Below are positions 4,522 through 43,100 of a stretch of 64,000 nt of DNA, piece by piece (the stretch's first letter is position 1; every line of letters starts with the position of its first letter). The notes under the pieces were generated by a model. It saw nothing but the letters and a program-made list of their open reading frames with translations. It did no database searches and was not told the origin of the DNA. Source of the DNA: an uncultured Acidimicrobiales bacterium (GTDB lineage Bacteria; Actinomycetota; Acidimicrobiia; Acidimicrobiales; SZUA-35); NCBI GenBank assembly GCA_937922805.1, contig CALAJV010000005.1, positions 567 through 64,566 on the forward strand, in the 5' to 3' direction. Position numbers and translations under genes: made by a program.

Positions 4522-6426
4522 TTATTCGGCGAAGCGTCGTGCCGCTCCGAGTTCGAGCCGAGTGCCGGTGCTGGCGTCCCAAATCCAAAGGTCGGCGTTT
4601 ACAAAGTCGGGGTTAATCAGCTTGGTGTTCGCTCCCGCTTCAAACGTTTCACCGTCGCCCAAAATGAATTTGCTGGCACCGAACGAAGATTCAACTTCGC
4701 TGACCATGCTTTCTGGCTCTCGGTCCGGGTAGAGATATTCGACGTTGTAGAACACGGCTGAGCTTCCGAACCCGAAGGTGCTGATCCCAGCACTGTATAG
4801 CTCACCGCCTTCGGGAAACGGATCGTCGCCGAACCAAGAAGCCCATCGTTCAAGGCCACTATCGGCAACCGGCACAATCTCGGCGTACGACAAGTTGACC
4901 TTGGTCCGAGCGTCGTCAACATCGTCGGTAATGGTGAGATCAGCGTTGATCTGTTTGCCCTCTTGCTCCGGCACATCGTAGGTAACTCTTCGAACAGTAC
5001 TCAAGCCATCATCAGTTTTTTCGGTCTTGTTGCTGTCTTCGGTCCAGCCAAGGCTGGCCAGCTGGGCATCGTAGAACGCGTTCACATCGTCGTACTCACC
5101 GTCGATGAACATCTCGACTTCAGAACTCATGGCCCGGAAATCTTCGCTATTGCCACTGAACGAAATCACGTTGTTCACGCCAGACCGGAGGTCGACAATA
5201 TCGGCACCATTAGGGGTTGGAATATCTGGGAAGGCTCCGATGCGCTGCATCTGGGCTGACACGTCAGCAGTCGGCCCGTAAATGTCGCTGACAATAGCTT
5301 GAATCTCATCAGCGGTAGCGCCAGATTCTGGCAGCGGATCTTCCGACTTTTCTTCGCCAACAACTTTCACTCCGTCAAACGGGGGCGTGATTACAAGAAC
5401 TCTGGCACGAACACTCTGAGACTTACCAGCAGCAACGTAGAAATTCTCGTAGCCGTCCCGCTCGACTTTGACACCAGAGGTTGACGCCTCAACGTCGACA
5501 CCTAAGTCGGCCGCTTTGTCGACCAGCTCTTGGACCAACTCTTCGTCATCTTCCGTTGGGAGCCCCTCGGCAATGTAGGTTGAACCCAGGTCGACTTTGG
5601 TCCGACCAGGTCCCCACGTACTACCGACCTGGATGAAGTTTGGTTCGGCACTGTCGTGGAGTGGCACATCGCCATGCCAACCATTGAAACGATTGGCAAT
5701 AGAACCGTCGGGGTCTGGGAACTCGCTGGCTGAGTAACGAAGCCGTAGCCGGATCGCTTCCAGTTCAGCGTCGCTAATAACAGCGACCGTCATGGATTCA
5801 TAGCCCAGGCTCTTATCCCGAGTAAACGATAAGAATGTTCCCGGCTGTCCGGTCGGAGGGTCTGATTTTTCTTCGGTGCTATCTAGAACCCAACCGAGTG
5901 GGGCGAACGCCGCTTCAAACTCTTCGACCACATCAGGCCGCTCCCCATCAACCTTCACCGTCACTTCTGTGGTTACCCGGCTTAGGCCTGGCCCACTACT
6001 GCTACTGAAGCTGCTGTTGGCCGAAACTTCCATCACGTGGGCCCCTGCCTGGGTTGGGACCTGAGGGAACGGGTAGAGCTGGCTAGCGACACTAGTGACG
6101 TCGTCGGTCGGGCCGTGCAAGCTATCAACAAGAGCGACTATCTCACTGCCGGAATCGTCTGCCGGAATCGTGGCCAGGTTTTCCGCGGTTACGTCAGCAT
6201 CACCCGAGCCGCTCGCCGGTGCATCGTCGTCAGAATCTTCGTCGCCTTCCGCGGTATCGCCATCAGCGTCATCGGAATCATCAGGCAATGGGTTCTCTAC
6301 CGGGTCCTGGGTGTCCGAACTATCCGATGGGGCGCTTCCCAGCTGGGAAGTCCCCGACCCGCAGGCGCTGGCTATCATCATGGCCGCAAACAACGCGGCC
6401 AGCGTGCTCATAGTCTTGTTTTTCAT
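4522..6426 (-). CDS. Acidic lipoprotein with an internally duplicated domain (function unknown)
   Basis: ATG at 6426 is preceded by GAGGAG about 7 nt upstream. The lipobox signal reads MKNKTMSTLAALFAAMMIASAC-GSG. The two halves align by eye (IVALVDSLHGPTDDVTSVASQLYPFPQVPT vs IQAIVSDIYGPTADVSAQMQRIGAFPDIPT). The ORF track extends 11 codons further, to 6459. Confidence 0.7.
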   Translation of the reverse strand: MKNKTMSTLAALFAAMMIASACGSGTSQLGSAPSDSSDTQDPVENPLPDDSDDADGDTAEGDEDSDDDAPASGSGDADVTAENLATIPADDSGSEIVALVDSLHGPTDDVTSVASQLYPFPQVPTQAGAHVMEVSANSSFSSSSGPGLSRVTTEVTVKVDGERPDVVEEFEAAFAPLGWVLDSTEEKSDPPTGQPGTFLSFTRDKSLGYESMTVAVISDAELEAIRLRLRYSASEFPDPDGSIANRFNGWHGDVPLHDSAEPNFIQVGSTWGPGRTKVDLGSTYIAEGLPTEDDEELVQELVDKAADLGVDVEASTSGVKVERDGYENFYVAAGKSQSVRARVLVITPPFDGVKVVGEEKSEDPLPESGATADEIQAIVSDIYGPTADVSAQMQRIGAFPDIPTPNGADIVDLRSGVNNVISFSGNSEDFRAMSSEVEMFIDGEYDDVNAFYDAQLASLGWTEDSNKTEKTDDGLSTVRRVTYDVPEQEGKQINADLTITDDVDDARTKVNLSYAEIVPVADSGLERWASWFGDDPFPEGGELYSAGISTFGFGSSAVFYNVEYLYPDREPESMVSEVESSFGASKFILGDGETFEAGANTKLINPDFVNADLWIWDASTGTRLELGAARRFAE

Positions 6427-6716
6427 TGTCCCGCTCCTCAGCTTTTTACAACGAAGCAAACGTAAGGCGTAAGGCCTTGATCGTTATTAGCTTCGCCTTC
6501 CAACGGTATAGGCAGCCAGCATCTTGCGCTTGTCAACCCCGAGGATTAACGGTTGCTTGACTCGTAGTTTTGATCTGTCTGTAACGCTAAGACGGAACGA
6601 ATCGAAGATCGGTTCAGAGATTTCCGAAAAATCGTCAACAAAGCGGACGGCGAGCACTTCGAACCAAAGATTTTGGACCACAAGAAGGCGAAAGAACGGG
6701 TCTACCTTCCTGTGAG

Positions 6717-7352
6717 TTAGTCCGGTTTCTCCGATTCGAGCGATTGCTCATAGTCGGCTTCAAGAAACTGCCTCATTTCAGCCGGATCAGTATCGCTGCC
6801 TGCGGTGTCGTTGAAGACCTTAGGGCCAACAGTGTCGTCGACCGCAGTCCACTCATTTGGCTGCCACACTGCGCCCCGCCGAAATGCTTTGGCGCAGTGG
6901 AGGAAGGCCGCCTCAACTTCTATGACCACCGCTACTTTCGGTCGGCGAAGCTCGTTATCCCAAAGAGCGAGAAAGTCGGGATCGGTCGTGATTCTGGCTG
7001 CTCCGTCGATCCGCAACGTTTCGTCCGACCCTGGGATCATCACTAGCAAGCCCGCTTGGGGGTTTGCAACAATGTTTGTTAAAGAATCAATCAGGTTATT
7101 ACCTGAAAGGTCGGGGAAGGCAACCTTGGTCCCCCCGTCGAGAACCTTCAGTTGACCGGCCGGGCCGCCTCGGGGCGAAACATCGCACGTTCCATCGGGG
7201 CCAGCGGTCGACAAACAGAAGAACCTCGATGCGGCAACGAATTCAGCTGCGGCTCCGACGATCGTTTTCCCTTTTTTGTTCGCCACCCGCTCCGAAGGTT
7301 CCCGGTAAAGGGCCCGAAGTTGATCCATTGACCTCACATCGTGGTCGGCCAT
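6717..7352 (-). CDS. Pyridoxamine 5'-phosphate oxidase (PPOX)-family FMN-binding protein
   Basis: This 211-aa ORF contains ...FFCLSTAGPDGTCDVSPRGGPAGQLKVLDGGTKVAFPDLSGNNLIDSLTNIVANPQAGLLVMIPGSDETLRIDGAARI..., typical of the MSMEG_1061-like PPOX class. Confidence 0.7.
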   Translation of the reverse strand: MADHDVRSMDQLRALYREPSERVANKKGKTIVGAAAEFVAASRFFCLSTAGPDGTCDVSPRGGPAGQLKVLDGGTKVAFPDLSGNNLIDSLTNIVANPQAGLLVMIPGSDETLRIDGAARITTDPDFLALWDNELRRPKVAVVIEVEAAFLHCAKAFRRGAVWQPNEWTAVDDTVGPKVFNDTAGSDTDPAEMRQFLEADYEQSLESEKPD

Positions 7353-7353
7353 A

Positions 7354-7962
7354 TTAGCTAGCTGGAACTACGGCAGACCAGAAAGGGTCGCCGTCTTCAC
7401 ACGGAGTGAGCCGGTCAATAACAAGCGGAGCTCCAGTTGTGCCGTCGAAGGCAATGTCGAAAAACAGTCCTTCGCAGGCTCCCTCGGCATCACCGATGTC
7501 GGACGGGTTGGCCTCGGCGGCCGATATTGCCCTGTCGGCTCGAACAAACATGTCGTCAACGGTTGGATCTAAACCAAACTGGCTGGCGTTGCTGACCTCG
7601 CCGGAATTTGTCGCTTGACCTGCCCGCACCTCCACGTTGACCGTGGTTTCGGAGTTCTCATGCACCAAGGTGTAGTCCGATATTGCCGCTTGAGCCCAGA
7701 GATCTTTGGCTGCGGTTAAGGCCGCTCGCGCTTTTGGAACATCGAGTTCGGAAACTCGAACCGAGACCGGTTCGGTGACGGAAACCTCTGGCTCTGTTGT
7801 GGTTGATTCAGCCGCAGTGGTCTGGGTAGTGTCGCCGGTCAACGTTGGGGCGCCGGTTGTGACCGAACTGGTTGCGCTCGACTGGCCACAAGCGGCAAGT
7901 CCTAGGACGAGCACCAACGGTAGGACAGCCGCCCAATTGAATTTCTTAATCTGCACTGTCAT
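7354..7962 (-). CDS. Lipoprotein, function unknown
   Basis: The lipobox signal is MTVQIKKFNWAAVLPLVLVLGLAAC-GQ, followed by a Thr/Ser-rich linker. The alternative ATG at 7995 (ORF track) would overlap the upstream gene by 50 nt. Confidence 0.6.
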   Translation of the reverse strand: MTVQIKKFNWAAVLPLVLVLGLAACGQSSATSSVTTGAPTLTGDTTQTTAAESTTTEPEVSVTEPVSVRVSELDVPKARAALTAAKDLWAQAAISDYTLVHENSETTVNVEVRAGQATNSGEVSNASQFGLDPTVDDMFVRADRAISAAEANPSDIGDAEGACEGLFFDIAFDGTTGAPLVIDRLTPCEDGDPFWSAVVPAS

Positions 7963-8509
7963 CAATCCATGCTTCCGGGGTGACCCCAAGTCCATCAGCG
8001 ATGCGGTTTACATATGCGTAGTACGAAACAACTTCAACAATATCGAGGATATCTCGATCATCGAATCCAACGGCTCGCAGGCCATCAACGTCTGATTTCG
8101 TCATATCTCCAGGGTTTTTCGTCAACTTGACGGCGTAAGCAAGCATGGCGAGCCGAGCCGGAGAAAGCCCGGCGTTCTGCCAGTCGGCTTCGATTCCCGC
8201 TAGCAGTTCATCATCTTTCAAAAGCCGACGCAGGCCGCGCCGATGGTGAACAATTCAATAGTGGCAGCGGTTCTCAAGCGAAACCACCAAAGCCAGCAGC
8301 TCTCGCTCGACTTTTCTCAGGGTGGCGGTACCAGCCATCGCCGAGGTATAGAGAGCGTTGTGAGCTGCCAACCCGACCGGGTTCAGCGAATGTATCGCCA
8401 TAATCTGATCTACTCGCCCGTAGGTCTTGTCGACAACGTCATCGTAGATTTTGGCTAGTCCATCGTGCTCAGACCATTGGTCATCAGGAACTGTTTCAAT
8501 CCATGCCAC
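7946..8509 (-). CDS. AhpD-like / carboxymuconolactone decarboxylase-family peroxidase-related protein with an in-frame TGA (8255-8257); selenoprotein candidate or pseudogene
   Basis: ORFs 8255-8509 and 7946-8221 are in the same frame and are separated only by one TGA. The read-through sequence is ...LALVVSLENRCHY-[TGA]-IVHHRRGLRRLLKDDELL.... This puts the TGA at the second Cys of the family's C-x-Y-C-x-x-H-H redox motif. Confidence 0.7.
8226..8242 (-). promoter_or_regulatory. Candidate bacterial SECIS-like hairpin 3' of the in-frame UGA
   Basis: On the mRNA this reads CGGCGC-GGCCU-GCGUCG, a 6-bp stem with one G-U pair and a 5-nt apical loop starting GG. The stem begins 12 nt after the UGA and the loop 18 nt after it. 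An alternative 8-bp long-range pairing (GUCGGCUU with AAGCCGAC) also exists. Confidence 0.35.
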
Positions 8510-8543
8510 CTAGATACGGTAGCGGCTAGATCTTTCTCATGAA

Positions 8544-10529
8544 ATGGTCGGAACTGGTCGACAACTAACTGTGGCCCTGCTTGACGCTGTGCGATCGAAA
8601 CTCAGTCGTGAGCACAAACCCAGCGACCCCGACGTCGAATCCGAACTGCAGCGACGGCTCCAAACATCGAAAGCCCGGTCGCTCTACGGTATTATTCCGC
8701 TCGTAGTAATCGTCGTTGTTCTATTTTGGAGTCGATCGTCGCACATCGGGTTGCTCGTTTGGGCCGCGATCATTTCTACCAACAGCATTGCCTGGTTGCG
8801 CCAGGTTAAGAAGCCGATCAACGACGCATGGATGAAGTGGGGTGCCTTCTTCCACATAACCGGTGCGTTCTCGTGGGGTCTGCTTCCGATATTGGCAATG
8901 CCGAGAGACCCGACCGATCAGGTTGCCGTCGTCGCCTACCTCAGCGGAGTCATCGCCGCCAACACGAACTCATCGGCGCCAATCAAATCCATGTACTACC
9001 GGTTTCACATGACGCTGACGATCACTGCGATCGCGGGCTTCCTCATCAACAGCACAGGTGTAGGCCTGTGGACCAGTTTGTCGTTCCTGACTTTCTGCCT
9101 TTGCTATGCCGCGGCCATGGCTGAAGTAAATCACGCCACACATCGAGAGGCGGCCGAGTTTGGGGTGCACAACGGTCGACTAGCTAAGGGCTTGGCCACG
9201 AACAAAGTCCAACTGGAAAAAGCTAACAAACGGCTCGATCGCCAGGCCCGAACCGATTCCCTAACCGGTATCGCAAACCGACTTGGGTTCACTGAGGCGC
9301 TAGAAAAAGCGTTGAACGACCGAGATAACGATCCAACTAGAACCGTGGGCCTGGTCTACATCGACCTCGACGGTTTTAAGGTAGTCAACGACACCATGGG
9401 TCACCGAGTAGGAGACCTACTACTTGTAGCCGTTGCCCGCCGCCTCTCCAATATCGCCGACGAAAGCGAACTTGTGGCCAGACAAGGCGGCGACGAACTT
9501 GTTTTGCTTTGCCCTAACCTTGACGATGATCGTGGCATCGAAAATTTGAGTCAGCGACTTCGATCAGTTTTCGCCGAACCGTTTGTGATCGACAACCGGC
9601 AACTTGACGTAGCGGCTAGTTGCGGCATAGCTGTGTCGGATTCCGCCACCAACGCCGATCAGCTTCTACGACAAGCCGACATTGCGGTCTACAAATCAAA
9701 AGTTGCCGTCAATGACAAGGTGACGATTTTCGATTCCGAGATGGGCCGTCAACTCGCCCAAGACATCGAAATCGAACAGAAGCTAAACGAAGCTCTCGGA
9801 TCCAACCAGATCAAGCCGTATTTTCAGCCGATCGTCGACCTGTCGACTGGCCACATCGTCGGAGGCGAAGCGCTCGTTCGATGGGAACACCCTGATGGAA
9901 TCAAAACTGCCGCTGCGTTCCTCGACATCGCAGCCCGACAAGGTCTCATGCCGGCAATCGACCAGATGGTCGTGGCGTCCGTCTCCGACTTCTGTCTTGA
10001 CACCCAAGCTCGACTACCTACACCGATCCGACTAACCGTGAATATCACGGCAAACCAGCTACGACGGGTTCTTGACACCTTCACCAAGACCTCTGCTCTT
10101 GATGGCCTAACAATCGAGATCAGTCAGCAAGAGGGGTTCAACTCGATTAGTGAAGCGCAAAGTCTTGTCGAACAAGCCCATAGCTTAGGTGCTGAAGTGC
10201 TCGTGGATGATTTCGGTTTAGGTCGGTCGTCGCTAGCTATGGCTACCCAACTCAATGTTGATGGCTACAAGATCGATCGAAGTTTCGTCGCTGACATCGA
10301 AACCGAAGCTGCCGTGGCCGCCATCGCATCTGTCGTTGAGCTGGCAGCTCGGCGCGGTCAGGTTGTCATCGCTGAAGGGGTAGAAACCGCTACCCAGATG
10401 AAGCTTCTACGGGAGCTAGGGGTAGAAACAGCTCAAGGCGACTACTACTCGCCCGCGGTAGCGTTGGACCAGTTCGACCGGTGGCTCTCGAACAACCATC
10501 AATTCCCAACCAGTCAACTGACTGCCTAG
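8544..10529 (+). CDS. Membrane-bound GGDEF-EAL protein (diguanylate cyclase/phosphodiesterase)
   Basis: The N-terminal region has multiple TM helices. The GGDEF domain contains DSLTGIANR and RQGGDELVLL. The EAL domain contains GGEALVRW and a DDFG...S...L motif. Confidence 0.85.
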   Translation: MVGTGRQLTVALLDAVRSKLSREHKPSDPDVESELQRRLQTSKARSLYGIIPLVVIVVVLFWSRSSHIGLLVWAAIISTNSIAWLRQVKKPINDAWMKWGAFFHITGAFSWGLLPILAMPRDPTDQVAVVAYLSGVIAANTNSSAPIKSMYYRFHMTLTITAIAGFLINSTGVGLWTSLSFLTFCLCYAAAMAEVNHATHREAAEFGVHNGRLAKGLATNKVQLEKANKRLDRQARTDSLTGIANRLGFTEALEKALNDRDNDPTRTVGLVYIDLDGFKVVNDTMGHRVGDLLLVAVARRLSNIADESELVARQGGDELVLLCPNLDDDRGIENLSQRLRSVFAEPFVIDNRQLDVAASCGIAVSDSATNADQLLRQADIAVYKSKVAVNDKVTIFDSEMGRQLAQDIEIEQKLNEALGSNQIKPYFQPIVDLSTGHIVGGEALVRWEHPDGIKTAAAFLDIAARQGLMPAIDQMVVASVSDFCLDTQARLPTPIRLTVNITANQLRRVLDTFTKTSALDGLTIEISQQEGFNSISEAQSLVEQAHSLGAEVLVDDFGLGRSSLAMATQLNVDGYKIDRSFVADIETEAAVAAIASVVELAARRGQVVIAEGVETATQMKLLRELGVETAQGDYYSPAVALDQFDRWLSNNHQFPTSQLTA

Positions 10530-10622
10530 AACTTCTTTAGAAACTCTTCACTCGTTGTACCTCGCCGCGCCAAGTTGGTGCGAGTTAGGGGTCAAAGAGC
10601 TAGCTAACAGGAGTTTGCAGCA

Positions 10623-12647
10623 ATGGGTGGAAAACTTTGCCAAGGTCCTTCTTTTGGGCACGACGAGCGGTTGGACAAACCGGATAGTCGATGGGAGCCA
10701 GATCGGTACAACAAATCCAACACTATTCAATTCATTCAACCGCAATCGTTTCGAACCGCCCCTAACACTGCGGTAGCGAACCAAACCCAGTCGACGTGGA
10801 TGCTCCGAGGTCGCAAGCTATTCCTCGCTACAGCCGCGGTTGGACTCGGGGGCCTTGGAACTCTTGGCATGATCTCTTCGGCGTCTGCCGATGGGGGCGG
10901 CCCTTGTCTTGATGAAGGCAACGGCGACGGTTGGGGCGTCAACCCAGAAACAAACGAGGGTTGCCTGATCTCAGGTTTTACTACCGGTGAAATATGTTTA
11001 GATGACGACGGGGACGGCCGTGGCTTCAACCCTGCGCTCAACGACACCTGTGAACTCGACGGTCACCCAGATCATGAATCAGATCCAGGTGAACCACGCC
11101 AGCCGGAACCAGAGCCAGCTGAACTCGAACAACGCCAGCCGGTACCAGAGCCGGAACCCGAACCAGAACCGCAGCCAGTTGGATCGCAAGACTGTGTTGA
11201 TGAAGGTGATGGCGACCCGTGGGGAGTCAACCCAACAACCAACGACGGGTGTTGGATCGAGGGCATCGACCTTTCGACCTGTGAAGAATCTGGATCTGTA
11301 TTTGAATGTCCAGACGGGGAAACGTACCCGGCTGATCCATCGAATGAGCCTTACGAAGGAGATGCTGAAACCGATTCCAGCACGTACTACTCAGCGCACG
11401 AACTAGAGTTCGATGACGATTACTCGCCGGGTAGCGACCATGAAACTGCTGAACAGCCACTGACTAGAGACGCAATGTGCGCCGAGCATGGCGCCAGCGC
11501 TTCTTACTACAGTTCAGACGGGAGTTTCGCTGGTTGCTCAGTATGCATAGATCATGTTGCACCGATCCAGGATGGGTTCGGCCCCGACGATGACTTCGAA
11601 CACTCAGGCTTTACCGAGTGCTACAACGTTGATCCTGAAACGGGCGAACGACTTCCTTTCATGCCAATCCGACCCAACCCAGTCAACGTCGACCGTGACA
11701 CCAACGACCGTGACACCAACGACCGTGACACCAACGAGAGCGACGGCAGTTCATCAGCCACGGCATCGTCTCCGCATGTTATTTGGACGCCGGACAACGT
11801 CAAAGTTCACTACGACCGAGACAAGGTCACGATTATTGGGGGCAACGAACATACCGACGCTCCCTACATTTACTTGGCTGATGGCCACGGTGAAGGACAC
11901 GGCACGAAGCTCATCGGAGACCCAGTCCCTATCTGTGAACAAGGAATCGAAAGCGACATCGATGGCGACGGTTACGGCTCCGAAAATGGGAGAACGTGCT
12001 ATGCCGGTGTTGTAGCCGATGCCTCTTCATCGCAACCTCCCTCGTTGATTTCGCGAGGCGAGCAACTGGCCTCGGAGGGTCCAAGTACGCTCTCGCCTTG
12101 CCGTCCAGATACCTCCACCGGTGATCCCGGAATCTGTTCCGACGACGATGGGTTCTGTCGACCGTTCGGAGCAGACGTTCGATACATCAGAGATCCATGT
12201 TGGCAGTACCCCATTAGGCCAATGCCGGAAATCGTCGGCTCGAACCCTGACCGGGCGACGCCACCCGAGTTAGCTCGGTGCCGCTCAATCGAAAATACCG
12301 AGCTGACCTTCGGTCACGGCATATGTAGCGACGATGCAGGAACCTGTCGGCCTTATGGCACAGACGTCGAGTACTTCATGAGCCCGTGCTGGCAGTATCC
12401 GGTGGCCCCCATTGATCTCACCGGTATCGGCCAGCTCGACGATCGCACCCCAAGCAAGGACGACTACGCATCAGTGGTCGACCGGGTGTGTCAAGATTCA
12501 TTCGGGGGCCAGATCCGCAGCGATGACGGTGCTTGCGTGATTGACTGTGTTACCCCGCTTGGATTGAGCGCCGCGTTCGGTGAAGAAAAAACTAGGAACC
12601 ACGCAGCTGACAACCAGGGTGCGAACTGTTCTGAAATTTTCTTCTAG
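10623..12647 (+). CDS. Secreted or anchored Cys-rich protein with DGDG-W-G-V motifs, PE-repeat linker and DRDTN repeats (paralog A)
   Basis: ATG at 10623 is preceded by AGGAG. A hydrophobic segment (LFLATAAVGLGGLGTLGMISSASA) follows about 60 aa in. Motifs include CLDEGNGDGWGVNPETNEGC, CLDDDGDGRGFNPALNDTC and CVDEGDGDPWGVNPTTNDGC, plus a duplicated ICSDD.G.CRP[FY]G.DV.Y...PCWQYP. The internal ATG at 10800 is an alternative start but has no SD. Confidence 0.7.
   Translation: MGGKLCQGPSFGHDERLDKPDSRWEPDRYNKSNTIQFIQPQSFRTAPNTAVANQTQSTWMLRGRKLFLATAAVGLGGLGTLGMISSASADGGGPCLDEGNGDGWGVNPETNEGCLISGFTTGEICLDDDGDGRGFNPALNDTCELDGHPDHESDPGEPRQPEPEPAELEQRQPVPEPEPEPEPQPVGSQDCVDEGDGDPWGVNPTTNDGCWIEGIDLSTCEESGSVFECPDGETYPADPSNEPYEGDAETDSSTYYSAHELEFDDDYSPGSDHETAEQPLTRDAMCAEHGASASYYSSDGSFAGCSVCIDHVAPIQDGFGPDDDFEHSGFTECYNVDPETGERLPFMPIRPNPVNVDRDTNDRDTNDRDTNESDGSSSATASSPHVIWTPDNVKVHYDRDKVTIIGGNEHTDAPYIYLADGHGEGHGTKLIGDPVPICEQGIESDIDGDGYGSENGRTCYAGVVADASSSQPPSLISRGEQLASEGPSTLSPCRPDTSTGDPGICSDDDGFCRPFGADVRYIRDPCWQYPIRPMPEIVGSNPDRATPPELARCRSIENTELTFGHGICSDDAGTCRPYGTDVEYFMSPCWQYPVAPIDLTGIGQLDDRTPSKDDYASVVDRVCQDSFGGQIRSDDGACVIDCVTPLGLSAAFGEEKTRNHAADNQGANCSEIFF
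11691..11735 (+). repeat. Perfect 15-nt x3 in-frame tandem repeat (gaccgtgacaccaac; encodes DRDTN x3)
   Basis: Three identical consecutive 15-mers were read directly at 11691-11705, 11706-11720 and 11721-11735. Confidence 0.95.
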
Positions 12648-12806
12648 CGATTCAACGTTGACCAGAAATGGGCCCTACACAAGCGGGTCTATGCCCGTAG
12701 CGGGATGTTTTTGAACCGGGCTTTTTGGTCCCATGTCTGGACTTTGGAAATGATCCCCAAAATCCGGTCACCTCAGCGAGCGAGAGCGCTACAATTATCG
12801 AACCTT

Positions 12807-12895
12807 GGAGAGGTGACAGAGTACGGCCGATTGTGCCTCCCTGCTAAGGAGGTGTGGGTTTACGCCCACCGTGGGTTCAAATCCCACCCTCTCCG
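12807..12895 (+). tRNA. tRNA-Ser (anticodon GCU), copy 1
   Basis: The acceptor stem is GGAGAGG/CCTCTCC. The anticodon stem is CCTCC/GGAGG with loop CTGCTAA. The long variable arm is GTGGG-TTTACG-CCCAC, and the T arm is GTGGG-TTCAAAT-CCCAC. CCA is not encoded. TACAAT at 12790-12795 could be its -10. Confidence 0.93.
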
Positions 12896-12899
12896 CTGC

Positions 12900-13108: not shown

Positions 13109-14923
13109 ATGTGTAGAGAATTCTGCCATGGTCTTACCTTGAGGCACGAACAGTGCCTAGATCAGATCGGCAGCGGTGGGACACAAACCTGCGAGAACGC
13201 ACCGAGCATTAGTTTCGGCCCAGCTTCCGCCCAAAAGTATCCCTTCCGTAGCTTAGAGATGGCGTCCGACTCACCCAAATCACGGTGGTCTTTCAACCGT
13301 CGACGATTGGCGGTAGCCAGCGCAGCGGCTGCGGGCATGGGAGGGCTGGCCGCTATCGGCGCGATCACCCCAGCGGCGGCGGAAACAGCCGGCGAGTCCT
13401 GCGTCGACGAAGGCGACGGCGACGACTGGGGAGTCAACCTAGAGACGAACGGCGGCTGCCTAATGCCTGGCGCAAATGCGGCCGAGCTTTGCCTCGACCG
13501 TGATGGGGATGGCCGAGGCTTCAACCCAGCACTCAACGAGGTTTGTGATCTACCCGGATCGGACGAAAGATCAGAAGCTCGAGACGAGGCCAACTCGGAT
13601 CCAGACTCTGACGACGACACGAGCTACGACTCGAGCTATGACACGAGCTATGACACTGGTTACGAGACTGAGACCGCCAACGAAACTGACGACCTAGGGT
13701 GGTCTCAGGAGGAGATCGTTGCTAATCCGAAACCATCCGAACCATCACCCGAGCTAGAAACCGGACCGAAAACGGTGGCTCAATTATGTGCTGCGCATGG
13801 AGGTACCGCTAACTACAGCAGCTCAACTGGTGAGTATGCCAAATGCTCGGTCTGCGCTGACCCTCTCCACCTGATCGACGAAGAACTTTCTTGGGCTGGC
13901 AACGGGCCGAATCTTGGCACCGTGGCGCAACAAGAGTATGCGATGGAGTGTTTCGACATTGATCCGGTTTCTGGCGACCGTTTGGCCTGGGGTGAAGAAG
14001 CCAACACCAACCTCGATCACGACCAAACATCACATCGTGGCGTTGAGGAGCCTCGGCCGATCCCAGATAATTCGGAGCGGCCATCGTCGGACGTTGAACG
14101 CAACGAGGAAGACCGCTCTCAACACAACAGCTCGCGCCATCCGGCAGATCTGCTACCGGTTTGGGAGCCAGCACTTCCCGATAGTTTGGCCAACCCGATC
14201 GTGGTGACAGCCCCCGACGGAACACTCGTGCACTACGACCGAAGTTTGGTCCGAGTCGAAACTCCAATGGAAGCCACCGGTCAAGGCCTGTATGTCGCAG
14301 ACCAAATGGGCGACGGGCACGGAATCGTTATTACCGGTCGCAAGACCCCAGTCTGCATTCAGGGAATAGCGAGCGATCCTGACGGTGATGGATACGGCGA
14401 GGAGCACGGAACCGTTTGCTACGCCGGCATGGTTGTGAAACGACCCACCAACCAATCTCCAGAAGGTATCCCTGGCGTAGATTACCTTGCGTTCGATGAT
14501 GAAGGTGACCCTTACTGCCTACCTCATTGGACTAAGAATCTGAACGACTGCGACATGGATCTACGGTCGCACTCTATGAACCAAGCAGACGACGACCATC
14601 TGAACTATGGCGATGAGGACCGACCTCGGATCACACCAGTCGACGGTGGGCTACTTGATTTCAACTTCCACAATGGTCAAGATTTCGGTAAACCGGTTGA
14701 GGGTGATGGCTACAACTCGCTGGCGTTCGATGCCGACGGGAACGCATTCTGTTTCCCTCACCTGACCAAAAACTTCAACGGCTGCGACCTTGAGCTGATG
14801 ATTCACAATGGCGGGCGGACCGAAGCTATCGACAGAACCGAGGATGACGTTACCGGCTTGAAACCAAGCGAGATTCCGAGCTGGAATTTCCCGGACTTCG
14901 CCAGCGCTGACGCTGGTTGGTAG
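13109..14923 (+). CDS. Secreted or anchored Cys-rich protein with DGDG-W-G-V motifs (paralog B of 10623-12647)
   Basis: ATG at 13109 is preceded by AGGAG. It contains an RR-bearing hydrophobic region (SRWSFNRRRLAVASAAAAGMGGLAAIGAITPAAA). Motifs CVDEGDGDDWGVNLETNGGC, CLDRDGDGRGFNPALNEVC and CIQGIASDPDGDGYGEEHGTVC are collinear with paralog A. The internal ATG at 13259 is an alternative start. Confidence 0.7.
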   Translation: MCREFCHGLTLRHEQCLDQIGSGGTQTCENAPSISFGPASAQKYPFRSLEMASDSPKSRWSFNRRRLAVASAAAAGMGGLAAIGAITPAAAETAGESCVDEGDGDDWGVNLETNGGCLMPGANAAELCLDRDGDGRGFNPALNEVCDLPGSDERSEARDEANSDPDSDDDTSYDSSYDTSYDTGYETETANETDDLGWSQEEIVANPKPSEPSPELETGPKTVAQLCAAHGGTANYSSSTGEYAKCSVCADPLHLIDEELSWAGNGPNLGTVAQQEYAMECFDIDPVSGDRLAWGEEANTNLDHDQTSHRGVEEPRPIPDNSERPSSDVERNEEDRSQHNSSRHPADLLPVWEPALPDSLANPIVVTAPDGTLVHYDRSLVRVETPMEATGQGLYVADQMGDGHGIVITGRKTPVCIQGIASDPDGDGYGEEHGTVCYAGMVVKRPTNQSPEGIPGVDYLAFDDEGDPYCLPHWTKNLNDCDMDLRSHSMNQADDDHLNYGDEDRPRITPVDGGLLDFNFHNGQDFGKPVEGDGYNSLAFDADGNAFCFPHLTKNFNGCDLELMIHNGGRTEAIDRTEDDVTGLKPSEIPSWNFPDFASADAGW

Positions 14924-15006
14924 ACCGTATCCAGGTGTAGCTGCCAAAGGCGATCGTTCGAAAATAGGTTGCGTTGACACTGGCCGCTACGTTGGTAGCT
15001 ACACCT

Positions 15007-15095
15007 GGAGAGGTGACAGAGTACGGCCGATTGTGCCTCCCTGCTAAGGAGGTGTGGGTTTACGCCCACCGTGGGTTCAAATCCCACCCTCTCCG
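15007..15095 (+). tRNA. tRNA-Ser (anticodon GCU), copy 2 (identical to copy 1)
   Basis: The 89-nt sequence is identical, base for base, to 12807-12895. Confidence 0.93.
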
Positions 15096-15102
15096 CTCAA
15101 TG

Positions 15103-20324: not shown

Positions 20325-20795
20325 ATGTGGACTCCTCCCTCCGCTCAACAACGCAAGCGAATTCTCGACGAGACCCGCTCGATAGCCTTGGTCGGCGCAT
20401 CGGCCAATCCAGCCCGAGCCAGCAACTTCGTTCTCACATATTTGAAGTCTTCGGTTTGCGACTACGAGCTTTACCCAATCAACCCTGGCGAAGAAACCAT
20501 CCTTGGTCTGAAGGTCTACCCCTCAATTGCTTCGCTTCCCATAGTCCCAGACATGGTTGACGTATTTCGCAAGGCCGAAGACTGCCCAGGTGTCGCCCAA
20601 GAAGCGGTTGACGCTGGAGCATCTTCGCTGTGGCTTCAACTCGGCGTTTGGAGCGACGAGGCAGCTCAAATCGCCTCCGAAGCGGGGCTTGATGTCGTGA
20701 TGGATCGCTGCACCAAAATCGAACATGCCCGATTCGCTGGCGGACTCCACCTAGCCGGATTTGATACCGGCGTAATCAACAGCAAGCGAATCTGA
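20325..20795 (+). CDS. CoA-binding domain protein (YccU/YneT-like)
   Basis: The ORF contains IALVGASANPARASNFV...YPINP...YPSIASLP..VDMVDVFR, a typical CoA_binding_2 pattern. This family is commonly found next to metY. The gene ends in TGA (20793-20795). Confidence 0.75.
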   Translation: MWTPPSAQQRKRILDETRSIALVGASANPARASNFVLTYLKSSVCDYELYPINPGEETILGLKVYPSIASLPIVPDMVDVFRKAEDCPGVAQEAVDAGASSLWLQLGVWSDEAAQIASEAGLDVVMDRCTKIEHARFAGGLHLAGFDTGVINSKRI

Positions 20796-22361: not shown

Positions 22362-23597
22362 ATGGTTCGGCGGAGAACAAAACAGGCAGCACGTTCGCAC
22401 GTCTCTGTTCAAGCGTTGTTCTTGGTAGCAATTGTCGGAGTGCTAGCCGCCGCTGGTTGCAGTAACTCCGAGACTCTGGGCAACGATGTAACGGCTGATC
22501 AAGCATCTTCTTCGGCAACCCAACCGACCGAAGATACTCAGCAAGTCCAGCCTCAGGTTGGTGACGATCGATTAGTCGTTACCGCCGGCGCTGAGACATC
22601 AACCCAAGCCGACGATGTCGAGACAACGGCGCAAGATGGCGGCGACGTAATTACTGATTCGTCGACAGCTAACACGACAGCGACAACCGATTCGCCATCG
22701 TCAACCGTCACGTCGCCTACGTCTTCGTCTACGCCGACGAGTTCGTCCGCCGCCGATGGCTCGACGGCGCCAAGCCCAAGCTCACCGAAGTCGACAACTC
22801 AACTAGCAACTACGTCAACGGCTACCAGGTCGAGCATTACCAAACCGGCGACAACGACTAAACCGCGAACGGGTGCGTTCTTGTCTGTTGACTTCCAGCA
22901 GTCTCCGATTGGAACCTACACCGATGCCCGAATCCGAGCCGACTGGGACAACATCCGATACACGAAAGCATCGAGCCGAGCCGAAATTACCCAAGACGGT
23001 CAAAATCGTTTTGTCCGAGTCAAGTACCCGAAGGGCCAGGTTGGCAACGACGGCGGCGGTGCTACTTGGGAGATCAAACTTGAATCAAACTCGAGCGACG
23101 AGCTTTACGCCTCCTACCGGCTCCGGTTCGTGGGCGACTTCGACCCGGTCCTCGGTGGGAAACTACCGGGGTTAGCTGGCGGTGCTCGAAATACCGGCGG
23201 CAACAAACCAAACGGAAGCGACGGATGGAGCGCTCGAATAATGTGGCGCCCCGACAACGCCGCCGTCCAATACCTCTATCACCCCGACCAGCCCTCTAAA
23301 TGGGGCGAAGATCTTCAATGGGGACGCCGCTTCCCCAAGAATCAGTGGATAACAGTGGAAACTCGGATCAAGATGAACACGCCCGGAGACAAAGATGGCG
23401 TTGTTCAGTCGTGGCTGAACGGGCAGCGAATTCTGAACCGAACCAACATTAGATTCCGCGATGTCGACTCGTTCAGCATTGATAGCTTCATGTTCAGCAC
23501 GTTCTTTGGTGGCAGTGGATCCGAGTGGGCCCCTACCAAAGACGAATACATCGACTTCGACGACTTCGTAATTTCGAACTCGCCGATAACTCACTAG
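22362..23597 (+). CDS. Lipoprotein with Ser/Thr-rich linker and C-terminal polysaccharide-lyase-like (PF14099-type) domain
   Basis: The lipobox is LAAAGC-SNS, followed by a long S/T/P linker. The C-terminal domain contains GGKLPGLAGG...GWSARIMWRPDNAAVQYLYH...W.R....V..NTPG..DG....W.NG. I recall this pattern from the polysaccharide lyase family and have not searched it. Confidence 0.45.
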   Translation: MVRRRTKQAARSHVSVQALFLVAIVGVLAAAGCSNSETLGNDVTADQASSSATQPTEDTQQVQPQVGDDRLVVTAGAETSTQADDVETTAQDGGDVITDSSTANTTATTDSPSSTVTSPTSSSTPTSSSAADGSTAPSPSSPKSTTQLATTSTATRSSITKPATTTKPRTGAFLSVDFQQSPIGTYTDARIRADWDNIRYTKASSRAEITQDGQNRFVRVKYPKGQVGNDGGGATWEIKLESNSSDELYASYRLRFVGDFDPVLGGKLPGLAGGARNTGGNKPNGSDGWSARIMWRPDNAAVQYLYHPDQPSKWGEDLQWGRRFPKNQWITVETRIKMNTPGDKDGVVQSWLNGQRILNRTNIRFRDVDSFSIDSFMFSTFFGGSGSEWAPTKDEYIDFDDFVISNSPITH

Positions 23598-36287: not shown

Positions 36288-38504
36288 TTAACAGTGCCGA
36301 CCTGACCGTTGAAACGGTCGAGCAGTTCCTTGATCGCCGTTGTTGCGATCAGCGGGGTCGTCGTACCAAGTGTGAGTTCGCGGATTGTATAAGCCAAAGC
36401 CGGTGCCGACCCGCGAGTCGAAGTGCCACCAGGCCGATGCCGCACCGTGGCGGCCAACCGAGTTGATAGCCCACAGTCGATCACAGGCCAAATCTTTGGC
36501 GTTGCCCCAACCAACCCAGCCCTTCACCTGGGGGTGCGCGTTGAAGAACACCCGCGAGTGTCCGTATTCGCCGATGAACAATGGCATATTCCCGGCCTGA
36601 GCCACTCTGTCTTGCTCGGCAAAACCCTCGGCCATGTTGGCGCGAGCGATGGCTCGAACTGCCGGGTCGGAGGTACCGCAATCCGGCTCAGCGGAACGTG
36701 CTGCGACTTCCTCCCAGCTGAATAGTCGAGTCGGGTCCGGAACAATCTTGTCTGATACCGCATAGCAGCCTCCGGTGCGCCAGTTGGCGGCACTCGTACC
36801 AGTGGCAGTTCCGCGGCGCCACTCATCGCGACCCGAGAGATCTGGGTCGCCGAAGCCGTCGTCATCGGCGTCGAAATCAATCTCGTCTCCTCCGCGAGTG
36901 CTCGAATCGGCCTTCGCTGGTAAGCCAGTGTGATAACTGTGGGCCGACCAGATGAGGTTTGGATACTTCGACGTTCCGTCCTCAGTTACTAGACCAGCTC
37001 GAACTGCGGTCGACTTTGAAAGCTGCGCACCGAAGAATCCGCTAAGAATCAGAGGCTTGTCGTTATCGATGGCCCGCAAATTGGGAATCCACTCGTTGAA
37101 TAAGCTAATGATCTCATCAGTGCTTTCGTAAGGGTTGTGGTTCGGCGGATGGGGTTCATTCATCAGTTCGAATGCGATGATATTTTCGAACTGTTGCGAC
37201 CAGATCAACATCCTTTGCAGGTAGTCGCCCCCAAGAGTGGCACCGGTCTCAGTCCGATAGCTAACGACTTCGAACATGTCATCGTTGTCATAGGCGTGTT
37301 GGAGGTCGCGAGCCGACTTAGCTTCATCCCAAGCCCATTGGGGTAGCCAGTAGCGCCTAGTTTCATTGGCCCCAGCGTGCATAGGGTCGAGAACTACACC
37401 TACCCCTGCGTCACCCAACCGCCGGATCAGATCAGCTACTTGACGCATCCGTGGGTCAGCGTTCAACTGAGCCTGAGTTTGCGGTCCGGTTGGTTCAACG
37501 TCATCCCAGTGGAGTGGCATCCGAACGACGTCGAACCGGGTGGCCAGATCGGCCACGGTCTGGTCGTCCACCGAGTAGCTTCCGTTCCAGAATGCGTCAC
37601 CGCGAAGACTCACTGCCTTCCATAGGGCTGGTTGAGTTCGATCTGAAGATCGAACAATTTCCCATCTCCCATCTACGTTGGCCGTTTGATACCACTCGTT
37701 GGTCGGCCCTGCTGGCGGTTCCTTCGACGCCGATTTGGTTTCTCCGCACCGACGAGGCTTTGAAAGGTCTTCGTTCTTCCCAACGACCGTCATCCGGTAA
37801 TCGACCTCAGCGTCAGGCAGCAAACTGGTATCGGTCCAAATAGCTTGTGTGGCCGGAACTCGGGTGGCGCCAGACCACGACCCGCCGTCAACTCGCCGCT
37901 CGATGATGATGGCTGCCGCCTCGTCTTTGTGCGACCGGGTTTTGGTCAGCGCTGCTGAACTACCGTCGCTGGTAAAGGTGGCCCAACACGAGGCTACTAG
38001 CCGAGGAACCGAGAATGGAGGCAGAGCGGCCGACTCCCCGCAACGCTTGGCCGCTGATCGGATTTCGTTCGCACCTACGACCTTCATCCGATAGTCAAAA
38101 TTAACTCCAGGCCGCAAGGTCGAGTCGGTCCAGACAGCCTCCGTCGGACCGAGGCGGGCCGCCCACCACCACTTGCCACCATCAGCTCTTCGCTCAACGA
38201 TTATGGCCGACGCCTTGTCGTTGGAGGAACGAGTTCTGGTCACCACAACCGACTCCCCGTCACGGCTGAACGTTGCCCAACACGAAGCCACCGGGCGAGG
38301 CCGCGAAGACAAGGTTGCTTCGGCCGAAGAACTTACCAAGACCGAGACCGAGCTGCACAAAATTGCCGCCACTAATCCTGCTGATGCCAACCTCCGACAA
38401 ATACCGATCGACCGTGCCGCAAATTTCACTCGCCCTGATTTCACTGCGCCTGATTTCACTGCACTTGATTTCACTGCACTTGGGCTCACTGCACCTGATT
38501 TCAC
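36288..38504 (-). CDS. Glycoside hydrolase family 5 (cellulase/mannanase-like) with two N-terminal FN3/Ig-like repeats
   Basis: GH5 acid/base motif FELMNEPH and nucleophile motif LFIGEYG are present. A duplicated N-terminal domain reads VASCWATF[ST].DG.S...T.TRS...[DK].A.AIIVERR.DGG.W. The start is uncertain because the first 25 codons lie in a 15-nt tandem repeat. Confidence 0.75.
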   Translation of the reverse strand: MKSGAVSPSAVKSSAVKSGAVKSGRVKFAARSIGICRRLASAGLVAAILCSSVSVLVSSSAEATLSSRPRPVASCWATFSRDGESVVVTRTRSSNDKASAIIVERRADGGKWWWAARLGPTEAVWTDSTLRPGVNFDYRMKVVGANEIRSAAKRCGESAALPPFSVPRLVASCWATFTSDGSSAALTKTRSHKDEAAAIIIERRVDGGSWSGATRVPATQAIWTDTSLLPDAEVDYRMTVVGKNEDLSKPRRCGETKSASKEPPAGPTNEWYQTANVDGRWEIVRSSDRTQPALWKAVSLRGDAFWNGSYSVDDQTVADLATRFDVVRMPLHWDDVEPTGPQTQAQLNADPRMRQVADLIRRLGDAGVGVVLDPMHAGANETRRYWLPQWAWDEAKSARDLQHAYDNDDMFEVVSYRTETGATLGGDYLQRMLIWSQQFENIIAFELMNEPHPPNHNPYESTDEIISLFNEWIPNLRAIDNDKPLILSGFFGAQLSKSTAVRAGLVTEDGTSKYPNLIWSAHSYHTGLPAKADSSTRGGDEIDFDADDDGFGDPDLSGRDEWRRGTATGTSAANWRTGGCYAVSDKIVPDPTRLFSWEEVAARSAEPDCGTSDPAVRAIARANMAEGFAEQDRVAQAGNMPLFIGEYGHSRVFFNAHPQVKGWVGWGNAKDLACDRLWAINSVGRHGAASAWWHFDSRVGTGFGLYNPRTHTWYDDPADRNNGDQGTARPFQRSGRHC

Positions 38505-40128: not shown

Positions 40129-43100
40129 CTAATCGAGGGCGATTACCGCTATCTCGATAGGTCGATAGGCCCTAAGAGCGAGCGCTCCTCGTAAGGCGGC
40201 CACATCTGTATTGGCTTGCCCGACAACTTCGAGCCTCATCCCACTACGGAAGCCCACTGCATGCAAGTACCCAACTACTTGGTCAACCGAGAGAATCGTC
40301 GGTGTTCCGGTCCAATCGGTTTTGACGAAGTTCCCTGCGCTGTCCCGGTCGATGACGAGCACGAATGTGTTCGGGTCAGCGGTAGTTTGGTAGTCCACCG
40401 TGGTTAAGTTCAGCCCGCGACCGAAAATTCTCTCAGAGGGTGTCAGTTCTTGAACAACAATGGTGTTGACCGGCAACTGTCGCAGTGCTTCGAGTATTTT
40501 CTGTCCATCTTGATCTAGTTCGACGCTGACGTTGAGCAGTTCGGCCTCGGCACGGTTCGTCTGGTCGACAAAAGCCTCGGCATCGACCAACCCAGCTGGT
40601 TTCGCTCCCGCTAAGTCCTGCCAGTCCAAATAAAAGTTGTCGACGCGAAGCGCCAGCTGTTCGTAGGCAGCAAGCCATGACTCAGCGGCCCACAGGTTCT
40701 TGTCGTCAAGAATCGTTTTGAACTCGAGCATGACTGATCGATTGCGATCGTTGGCTGCTGCCAGCTTCGGATACAACTCGGTAGGAGTCGGCCCGTTGCC
40801 AGGCCCTTCATTACGCAGGCCGACCTCGGTTTCAGGCCCATCAATGCCGACTATCCCAAACCCATCAACAGCCTGACGATCGATATCGACGAAGTCTAGA
40901 TCGGACGCATCCAACCCAGCCTCCAACAAACCGACACCGAGAAAGCGAAGCGCTGCCTCAGTATCAGATTCGAACGCGAGGGCTCGTCCCTCTAATCGAA
41001 GCTCCATGCCTCGAACATACCCAGCAGCAACGAGGCGTCGAAGAAGTTCAGCGGTGGGAAGTGCCCGTAGTTGACCACCGGCAACCGACTCAACAAACGA
41101 ACCGTCAACACCTGCATCCACCATCAGCACAAAGGTGTTTGGCTCAGCGCTCGTGATACCGAGTCGGCTCGTTAGGTTGAGTCCTCGGCCAGGAACTTCA
41201 CCACCTGCCACCACAAATTCAGGTTCGAAGGTCGAGAGTGCTAAACCGGCTGCCGTAGGCTCGTTGTCGGTCGCCCTTAGGTAGTCGTCAATGATCTGCT
41301 GGCCTCGTTCAACCAGGCGGCGGCCCTCGGCTTCGATCTCAAGCCCATCAACAGTGTCCGACGAAGATGCACTGCCTAGGTCCGGATCTTTGCTGGTGGG
41401 GTACGCCCTGAGCTTGGACAAGTAGTCGGCGGTTTCGACCCGATACTCATCGGTTTGACGGCGCAGCATACTAAAGCTTATGGCACCGACATTTTGAAGT
41501 AGCTGTTCTAGTTGGCTACCAAGGTCAGTAGCTTGACGGGCCAGTACCAAACCATCTTCATACGTAAACGATCCAGTTGAGTTCGACGCCGTATCACCGT
41601 CCGGCGGTTCGGGGGTGGTCGGCGTGTCGGTACCATCATCGTCGACTACCACCGCAGTTGGATCCGAGTCGTTGGCCGCGTTTTGACCCGGTTGCGGAGA
41701 GAACGGCAGCGTGCCATCTCGTTGAACAATTTGCCCGGGCTCAACGCCCGCATCGCCCAAGGCGTCGGCAATATCGAACACGTACTGGACCGCTGTTGGG
41801 CCGAGTGGCCGGGGTATCTCGAGTATCATTCCTTGATCAAATCTGGCATCAATGATCGCGTTGGCTACTTGCAACGCTGTTAACGTCTGCCCGCCGAAGT
41901 TTGCGTACGCACCGGTTGGCGTTAGGTCAGCACCGAACACGAAGTAGTTGCTTTGATTACGAGTCGAGAGCGTTGTGCTCCCAAGGTTTAGTCCTCGCCC
42001 TCCCACTACACTGCCGGTTCCGAGCGGCTGAACGCCTTCGACGGTGCCGAGAGGTCCGGGTTGACCGTCGTTGGCGGCCAGATCACCGATTTGTTGCTCG
42101 CCCACGTTTATGGTTTGGACACTGAGTTGATCACCGTCGAGCGCCATTTGAAACTGCAGCTCTGCCACTATCGCTTCATCGACAATGTCGGTGAAGACTT
42201 CAAGGTTCATGGTCGGCTGAAATCCGGCTGCTCGAATTTCGTCGGCTAGTTCGTCGGCCGTTAGGACCACATCGGGGCCGTCCGGCTGAGCTTTGAAGAA
42301 GAGGCCAGCATCACTGGAGCTTGCTACGACCACAACAAACACATTCGGATCATCGCTGATACGGGCCCGCTTGGCGGTGAGGTTCAAGCCACGCCCAGCG
42401 ATCGGAACGAACGGAACAAGAGGTTGGCTGACTATTTCGACTGGAACGTGGTGGCCTATTTCGATGATGATCTGATCGATTTGGGTATCTACATCTTTGA
42501 CTCGAGCCGAAAGCGCAACCAGTTCATCTGGAGTCCTCTCAGACACCTCACGGACTTCTCCGGCTAGTTCGGCGATTTCGTCGACTATCAGTTGACGGTT
42601 GGTGGCAAACGCTCGATTACTAAACAAGTTTTTGGATCGCAACAGACTGTCTAGCTCCGCAATTCTTGTCTGCACAGCAAGAATTTCGGCGGCTGCATCA
42701 ACCGCTCGACCGGTCACGAAGGACGGTACCAAATCTCCGTCAAAGCCTCGTCTCCTCAATTCAGAAAGTAGCTCTGCGTCTGGACCGCCGCCACTCGAAA
42801 TTAGGATGTCCATATCCAACCTCAGACCAGCATTGAGAAGGCGACTAGCCAACTCACCCACCGACAACGGAGCGCTGCCAGTGCCTAACTCTGAAACGTA
42901 GTTCCCGTTTTCAACGTCAACCACGAGAACAAAGATCTCCATCGCTGTGCTGGTTAGATCAGGTTTGTTGGTGACGTTGATTCCTCGACCTTGAATATCA
43001 CCTTGAGGTGGTATCGCTACCGCTTTGAATCGAGCCGCTGGAGGAGGGAGAGAAGCCGAAGTGTTGCTACGGAGTTCGAGCAAATAATCTTCAACGTTCT

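Follow-up and report, generated by a model that had tools for sequence, protein, structure and literature searches.

An in-frame TGA followed by a conserved hairpin predicts a selenocysteine-containing AhpD-like protein in an uncultured Acidimicrobiales bacterium

The subject of this analysis is a stretch of 64,000 nt of DNA (the window) from an uncultured Acidimicrobiales bacterium (assembly GCA_937922805.1, contig CALAJV010000005.1, positions 567-64,566), which carries on its minus strand a gene for an AhpD-like, peroxidase-related protein (8509..7946) interrupted by one in-frame TGA. We conclude, with a probability that we put at roughly 90%, that this TGA is a selenocysteine (Sec) codon accompanied by a Sec insertion sequence (SECIS) element of the functional type. 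Comparison with homologues points to three properties that together carry this conclusion, namely the correspondence of the TGA to a redox-active cysteine codon, purifying selection on both halves of the gene, and constraint with covariation in a downstream hairpin at the level of the RNA. The residual doubt concerns the Sec machinery of this particular genome and a variant base in the hairpin loop.

The interrupted frame comprises 188 codons, running from a GTG at 8509-8507, the point at which homologues begin with MAWIE, to a TAA at 7948-7946, and its sole internal stop is the TGA at 8257-8255. Around this codon the minus strand reads GAG AAC CGC TGC CAC TAT TGA ATT GTT CAC CAT CGG CGC GGC CTG CGT CGG CTT, which translates as E-N-R-C-H-Y-*-I-V-H-H-R-R-G-L-R-R. 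An earlier inspection of the letters alone (the sequence-only reading) had taken the open reading frames (ORFs) 8255..8509 and 7946..8221 to be parts of a single frame split by this TGA, and translation of 8509..7946 confirms that they are. Read through, the gene would specify a product of 187 residues in which the predicted Sec is residue 85 (U85; codon at 8255..8257, minus strand).

Profile searches with Cys substituted at the stop place the read-through protein in a well-defined family. It matches TIGR01926 ('peroxidase-related enzyme') with 129.9 bits against a cut-off of 81.8 over residues 27-178, the Pfam family CMD (PF02627) with 47.1 bits (cut-off 23), and the model for the AhpD core domain, in agreement with the AhpD-like, CMD-family identity that had been assigned from the motif. 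Its closest solved relatives are the 'uncharacterized peroxidase-related proteins' 2oyo, 2pfx and 3c1l, together with the AhpD entry 6k40 (E ~1e-26). The stop had been proposed to replace the second Cys of a CxxC motif, and alignment places it exactly there: NRCHY[U]IVHH of the window protein lies against NRCLYCAVSH in 2oyo and NKCFYCLVAH in 2pfx, and at the DNA level the TGA aligns with the TGC for the second Cys in the Cys-form homologues L083-L088.

The resulting redox motif, C82-H83-Y84-U85 (CxxU; 8255..8266, minus strand), has Cys, His and Tyr residues that are invariant among 81 homologous sequences. The same holds for the two flanking residues of a predicted proton relay, Glu70, situated 12 residues before Cys82 (alignment column -15; codon at 8300..8302, minus strand), and His89, four residues after U85 (codon at 8243..8245, minus strand), such that the whole relay E70, C82, Y84, U85 and H89 is preserved with spacings of 12, 2, 1 and 4. 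We predict that the gene encodes an AhpD/CMD-family 'peroxidase-related' thiol/selenol oxidoreductase, a small enzyme of antioxidant type. In Mycobacterium tuberculosis AhpD the attack is made by the second Cys of the motif, which fits the occurrence of Sec at that position.

The TGA is conserved throughout the related loci in which DNA-level scans located the site. A DNA-level scan of one genome per GTDB species yielded 80 loci, nearly all of them in metagenome-assembled genomes (MAGs) of Acidimicrobiales/Acidimicrobiia (Aldehydirespiratoraceae, Poriferisodalaceae, Spongiisociaceae, Microthrix and marine groups), and a second scan of metagenomes yielded 80 more, in 77 of which the site could be located. 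All 157 of these related loci (80/80 species genomes and 77/77 metagenome loci) have TGA at the Sec codon, as do the loci L001 and L002. The coding sequence on either side of the codon is conserved to the same degree, the window protein and its homologues sharing on average 67% identity before the TGA and 68% after it, and the window protein keeps all 69 columns that are conserved at 95% or more in 149 TGA-containing homologues. L001 represents a second strain (99.70% identical over a 3,685-nt contig, with 11 single-nucleotide polymorphisms) that shares both the TGA and the loop sequence of the window, and the single difference between the two strains inside the selenoprotein gene is synonymous. 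Sister contigs to that of the window are ERZ6864376 c_000000999780 and ERZ6863480 c_000001784582.

The sequence-only reading had also pointed to a SECIS-compatible hairpin, CGGCGC-GGCCU-GCGUCG, beginning 12 nt downstream of the TGA. Such a hairpin is indeed present (8225..8243, minus strand), with its 5' arm CGGCGC at 8242-8237, its loop GGCCU at 8236-8232 and its 3' arm GCGUCG at 8231-8226, and it proved to agree with the published model, to be conserved and to covary. When positions are numbered from the U of UGA as 1, an optional closing U:G pair joins positions 15 and 33 (8243/8225), so that the hairpin starts 12 nt past the TGA if the 6-bp core is counted and 11 nt past it if the U15:G33 wobble is included. 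Bacterial SECIS (bSECIS) elements are modelled as having a loop of 3-9 nt, a stem of 4-16 bp, a G at loop position 1 or 2, a distance from UGA to loop of 16-37 nt and a minimum free energy (MFE) of -7.5 kcal/mol or lower (PMC13188914). The window hairpin lies within each of these limits, with a 5-nt loop that begins with G, a stem of 6-7 bp, 18 nt from UGA to loop and an energy of -9.5/-9.6 kcal/mol. Its apical loop reads G22 G23 C24 C25 U26 (8232..8236, minus strand), of which G23 is invariant across the family; the family consensus, G22 G23 U24 C25 U26 (GGUCU), is nearly so.

Several observations show that this segment is constrained as RNA and not simply as coding sequence. Codon entropy in 81 sequences collapses at positions +5 to +9 relative to the TGA, with values of 1.2-2.2 bits at the other conserved Arg, Leu and Gly columns. 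Arg is encoded by CGG in 73 of 76 cases at +5 and by CGC in 76 of 80 at +6, Gly by GGT in 79 of 81 at +7, Leu by CTG in all 81 at +8, and Arg by CGC (66) or CGT (15) at +9. Of the 200 Gly codons in the alignment's three remaining Gly columns, only 27 (~13%) are GGT. We assessed pairing in a set of 141 distinct sequences (set A3), using stem columns 15-21 with 27-33, and found 90% of the stem paired, as against 18-53% with slid partners. The pair 18-30, in which both partners are third bases of codons, is seen as G-C (96), G-U (18), C-G (15), A-U (6), U-A (1) and U-G (1); it is the one stem pair that covaries, and none of 500 shuffles reached the observed covariation score. Covariation was nearly lacking from the hairpin in the first 81 sequences and appeared only after the metagenome set had been added. 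The outermost pair, 15-33, is U:G in the window and C:G or U:A in most other members. Moreover, the Cys forms encode the same HHRRGLRR peptide, yet the hairpin is lost in three of four distinct Cys-form sequences. Taken together, these patterns show that the hairpin is under RNA-level selection.

A Cys-form locus, L085 (~6001-6552), was found to have TGC at the Sec position and to retain the full hairpin CGGCGC-GGTCT-GCGTCG, which looks like a fossil SECIS element left by a recent Sec-to-Cys conversion.

The Sec trait is present in related Acidimicrobiales, with the sel genes addressed here at the level of the clade only. We searched the window, together with related loci totalling 1.8 Mb, by ARAGORN and by tblastn with E. 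coli SelA, SelB and SelD sequences serving purely as probes, and the sole find was a selD gene in L066, an Acidimicrobiaceae MAG, at 4775-5708 and ~5 kb from the AhpD-like gene of that locus. In the L066 selD gene a TGA interrupts the frame at the canonical SHGAG-U-GCK site, and the stitched protein matches TIGR00476 with 285.7 bits. Two further Acidimicrobiales contigs, L169 (~9950-10951) and L170 (~9950-10918), carry selD with the same in-frame TGA at SHGAG-U-GCK. A SelD that itself depends on Sec implies a working Sec system. Within the class Acidimicrobiia, a 2026 preprint has reported selA, selB, selC and selD from all Actinomarinales (bioRxiv 10.64898/2026.04.03.716425). With regard to the selD genes themselves, we noted that they are called ~20 residues short in public gene sets for Acidimicrobiales (many clusters of 316 aa), that a candidate SECIS element, GCGCAC-GUC/GUG-GUGCGC, picked out by eye only, lies 27 nt past the TGA, and that the L066 copy is also frameshifted, as is typical for a nanopore-derived MAG.

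A number of observations weigh against a functional Sec codon in this genome. At loop position 24 the window has a C, whereas 155 of 157 relatives have a U, and non-U bases are limited to the window and L001 (both C) and L042 (A); the C is real, since the second strain has it too. U24 is a conserved loop base of the E. coli SECIS element, the minimal form of which, in fdhF, is a 17-nt upper stem-loop located 11 nt from the UGA, in which U17, G23 and U24 are conserved (PMC8659212, citing Liu et al. 1998). The bulged U17 of fdhF is likewise missing, position 17 of the family being an invariant G paired with C31 (137 of 141). The window hairpin is weaker than the consensus (-9.5 versus -15.1 kcal/mol), and in a context of 71 nt the MFE is no better than that of dinucleotide shuffles (z = +0.96) and corresponds to a structure other than the hairpin. 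A search of Rfam gave no SECIS match either at the gathering threshold or at E <= 10, an outcome to be expected given the poor coverage of bacterial SECIS elements in Rfam. Support for the hairpin thus comes only through comparison with its homologues. In addition, none of selA, selB, selC (tRNA-Sec) and selD was found in the 64-kb window or in the ~10-kb extension provided by L173, a contig that overlaps the window end and runs beyond it. Rare close relatives have TGG (L171, 449-1006) or TTA (L172, 3001-3549) at the Sec codon, showing that the codon can be lost. Finally, the Sec status of the AhpD-like family is itself a prediction.

The Trp and Leu alleles deserve a remark of their own. Both L171 and L172 keep the SECIS hairpin intact and have single-base derivatives of TGA that would remove the catalytic residue; they may represent recent loss of function, or a rescue of translation after Sec decoding was lost. 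Besides C-terminal fragments, a protein search returned Cys forms of full length (C-x-Y-C) and a few full-length proteins that have Trp or Leu at the site. We considered whether full-length 'CHYW' homologues were TGA codons read as Trp under genetic code 4; for the two examined at the DNA level this was ruled out, P0001 carrying a genuine TGG and P0003 a genuine TTA, and the other 'CHYW' clusters are P0002, P0004, P0005 and P0016.

The strongest rival explanation draws on several of these points. It holds that the lineage has impaired or lost Sec insertion, that the UGA is now mostly terminated or read by near-cognate Trp or Cys tRNAs, and that the gene is decaying or being converted. The variant loop base confined to three sequences would fit such a history, as would a stem with a G:U pair that is ~5.6 kcal/mol weaker than the consensus, the lack of Sec machinery in the 74 kb searched, and the TGG and TTA alleles that sit above intact hairpins in other lineages. 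Against it stand a protein that is intact at every conserved position and two strains that share the C24 variant and differ within the gene by a synonymous change only. G23, the stem and the spacing are all kept and the element passes the bSECIS model, and failing to find sel genes in 74 kb is uninformative either way when the genome measures several megabases. We regard impaired insertion as improbable and favour a Sec codon that is still in use.

Less probable still is that translation ends at the TGA, releasing an N-terminal protein of 84 residues, and re-initiates to make a separate C-terminal protein of 102 residues. The codon that follows the TGA is GTG or ATG in many homologues, and the protein search recovered more than 80 database clusters of C-terminal fragments of ~102-116 residues that start 1-2 residues past the stop position. 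Such clusters are, however, the signature of gene callers halting at a conserved TGA, and in many members the next codon is not a start codon at all (ATT in the window; ATC, ATA, ACC, ACG, AAC, CTC or CTG elsewhere). Two separate proteins would also cut the CxxC centre and its proton relay in two, and would leave the conserved hairpin with its GGUCU loop unexplained.

Decay into a pseudogene, or a TGC or TGT misread in sequencing or assembly, could account for one in-frame stop that divides a conserved gene and leads callers to annotate two fragments (84 aa and 91 aa in the public gene calls for L001), but we consider it excluded for practical purposes, since the same TGA recurs across species and samples in ~160 sequences obtained independently, the two halves are equally conserved and free of frameshifts, and the second strain, with its 11 differences across the contig, retains the TGA. 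The possibility of miscalled bases, which would have undone a Sec assignment, is disposed of by the same observations.

Reassignment of UGA to a standard amino acid (genetic code 4 or 25) has a negligible chance of being correct: TGA ends only three of 30 long window ORFs, but it terminates genuine genes both here and in L173 and occurs internally in no other credible gene. The sequence-only reading, which likewise held that TGA terminates other genes and that the code is not reassigned, is upheld on this point by the Pfam-confirmed CoA_binding_2 gene (20325-20795) and SurE (62496-63398) as well as by the L173 genes. A scan of the window for internal TGA codons turned up no other credible gene containing one, a 5274-codon ORF included. 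The stops of the 30 long ORFs are TAA (15), TAG (12) and TGA (3), and in relatives of similar G+C content TGA ends ~46% (Fisher p = 1.6e-4 versus the window). We considered this low use of TGA as a recoding signal and rejected it on the strength of stop usage in L173, where TGA ends three of six genes other than SurE; the depletion in the window thus reflects the region or the sampling, not the genetic code. A further scan for small TGA-interrupted ORFs with CxxU- or UxxC-like contexts returned noise only.

If the TGA is a Sec codon, a mechanism can be proposed by extension from the established bacterial Sec pathway. As the ribosome arrives at UGA85, the hairpin 11-12 nt downstream would bind SelB-GTP-Sec-tRNA(Sec), with loop base G23 (and in most relatives U24) recruiting the SelB complex, and Sec would be delivered at UGA85 in competition with RF2. 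The product would be an AhpD-fold oxidoreductase with a C82/U85 selenenylsulfide centre set within the E70/C82/Y84/U85/H89 proton relay. Its substrate is presumably a peroxide, a peroxiredoxin or another disulfide or selenenylsulfide partner, and the selenol would make the attacking residue more reactive than it is in the Cys forms. For the organism studied here, we infer both the insertion of Sec and its contact with SelB, as well as the nature of the substrate.

The genes around the selenoprotein gene give little guidance as to its function. It heads a tight cluster on the minus strand, in which it is followed by a lipoprotein-like gene (7354..7962; MTVQIKKFNWAAVLPLVLVLGLAAC...), read from the sequence and matching no Pfam or NCBIfam family, and by a third gene (6717..7352), the product of which is an FMN-dependent flavoprotein of PPOX type from the MSMEG_1061 family (TIGR04025; 192.5 bits, cut-off 170). 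The lipoprotein-like gene has its probable ATG at 7962-7960, giving an overlap of 17 nt with the 3' end of the selenoprotein gene. On the other side lies a divergent gene for a GGDEF-EAL protein. This local cluster of selenoprotein, lipoprotein and PPOX flavoprotein genes is not kept in the homologous loci of other species, and across 81 loci (80 genome loci and L002) no gene is consistently adjacent to the selenoprotein gene. The GGDEF-EAL gene begins with an ATG at 8544 on the plus strand, only 34 nt (8510-8543) away from the minus-strand GTG at 8509 that starts the selenoprotein gene, and because this leaves little space for two promoters and leaders, one or both of the transcripts may be leaderless.

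Elsewhere in the window, tRNA-Ser(GCU) occurs on the plus strand in two 92-nt copies (12806-12897 and 15006-15097), 100% identical and exactly 2200 nt apart, which flank an unannotated ORF of 604 aa (13109-14923). This ORF and the preceding one (10623-12647, 674 aa) share a repeated 60-nt motif (10904, 11192 and 13399) encoding C-V-D-E-G-D-G-D..W-G-V-N, and the region resembles a local duplication that took in the tRNA as well. The ORF of 5274 codons mentioned above (40129-55953, minus strand) is free of internal TGA and probably encodes a huge secreted or cell-surface protein. Its first 1500 residues match only CBM_10 and, weakly, RGI_lyase, its last 1499 residues have no match, and it sits among genes for polysaccharide-active proteins, including PL14 (22362-23597) and GH5 (36288-38504).

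The window gene belongs to a predicted selenoprotein family that has already been listed, and its novelty is accordingly low. AhpD-like proteins with CxxU were introduced as a new selenoprotein family, with 27 sequences in COG2128, by a survey of the Sargasso Sea in 2005 (PMC1088965); the GOS selenoproteome counted 299 sequences of 'AhpD-like 1' and placed it among the most abundant selenoprotein families (PMC2398784); and a 2026 review of prokaryotic selenoproteins lists 'AhpD-like protein, TIGR01926, CxxU' (PMC13188914). The statement of the sequence-only reading that Sec-containing AhpD-like proteins appear in computational selenoproteome surveys is borne out by these three sources. Compared with this family (COG2128 / TIGR01926), the window gene shows the same profile match, the same CxxU with Sec for the second Cys, the same downstream SECIS, its apical loop opening with G, and the same abundance of Cys homologues, and it does not differ in kind. 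It is distinct from the AhpD-related CFYUT (seleno)protein NF041238 ('hypothetical protein 1' of the Sargasso Sea survey), with which it shares CxxU and a distant AhpD-type domain: the window protein scores 36 bits against a cut-off of 175, and NF041238, at 357 residues, has another architecture, so that the window protein is not a member.

As both the family and the mechanism are known, no new biological question is opened. What we add is that the TGA is fixed across the sampled Acidimicrobiia and that it is accompanied by a near-invariant GGUCU loop on a covarying stem in an fdhF-like register, with a C24 variant in the lineage of the window. The practical gain lies in correct annotation of an abundant Acidimicrobiia selenoprotein that is systematically mis-called, as split genes and as the fragment clusters described above. 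The set of ~160 sequences provides a family-specific SECIS signature that can be used to annotate such genes, and it marks the Acidimicrobiales as consistent users of Sec.

Among characterised proteins, the nearest points of reference are M. tuberculosis AhpD and Pseudomonas aeruginosa PA0269, members of the same CMD/AhpD superfamily. Their proton relays (Glu118, Cys130, His132, Cys133 and His137 in AhpD; Glu36, Cys48, Tyr50, Cys51 and His55 in PA0269; PMC3141380) have a spacing identical to that of the window protein, which differs from both in its predicted Sec for the second Cys. Unlike M. tuberculosis AhpD, the window gene has no ahpC, other peroxiredoxin gene or lipoamide-system gene adjacent to it.

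The hairpin is best compared with the E. coli fdhF SECIS element. Both lie inside a coding sequence, start 11 nt past the UGA and present the loop in the same register; indeed, fdhF has the same seven bases as the family consensus at G22 G23 U24 C25 U26 G27 C28. The two elements differ in that the family has a pentaloop closed by C:G and fdhF a tetraloop closed by A:U, in that a lower stem is not conserved in the family, and in that the window has C24. One reading of this last difference, which we offer as a doubtful conjecture, is that the C24 lineage has a SelB with relaxed or shifted loop specificity, or that Sec insertion is deliberately attenuated there; if this were true, the pair of GGUCU and GGCCU loops would amount to a natural experiment on how bacterial SECIS elements are recognised, within a clade that otherwise keeps the exact register of fdhF.

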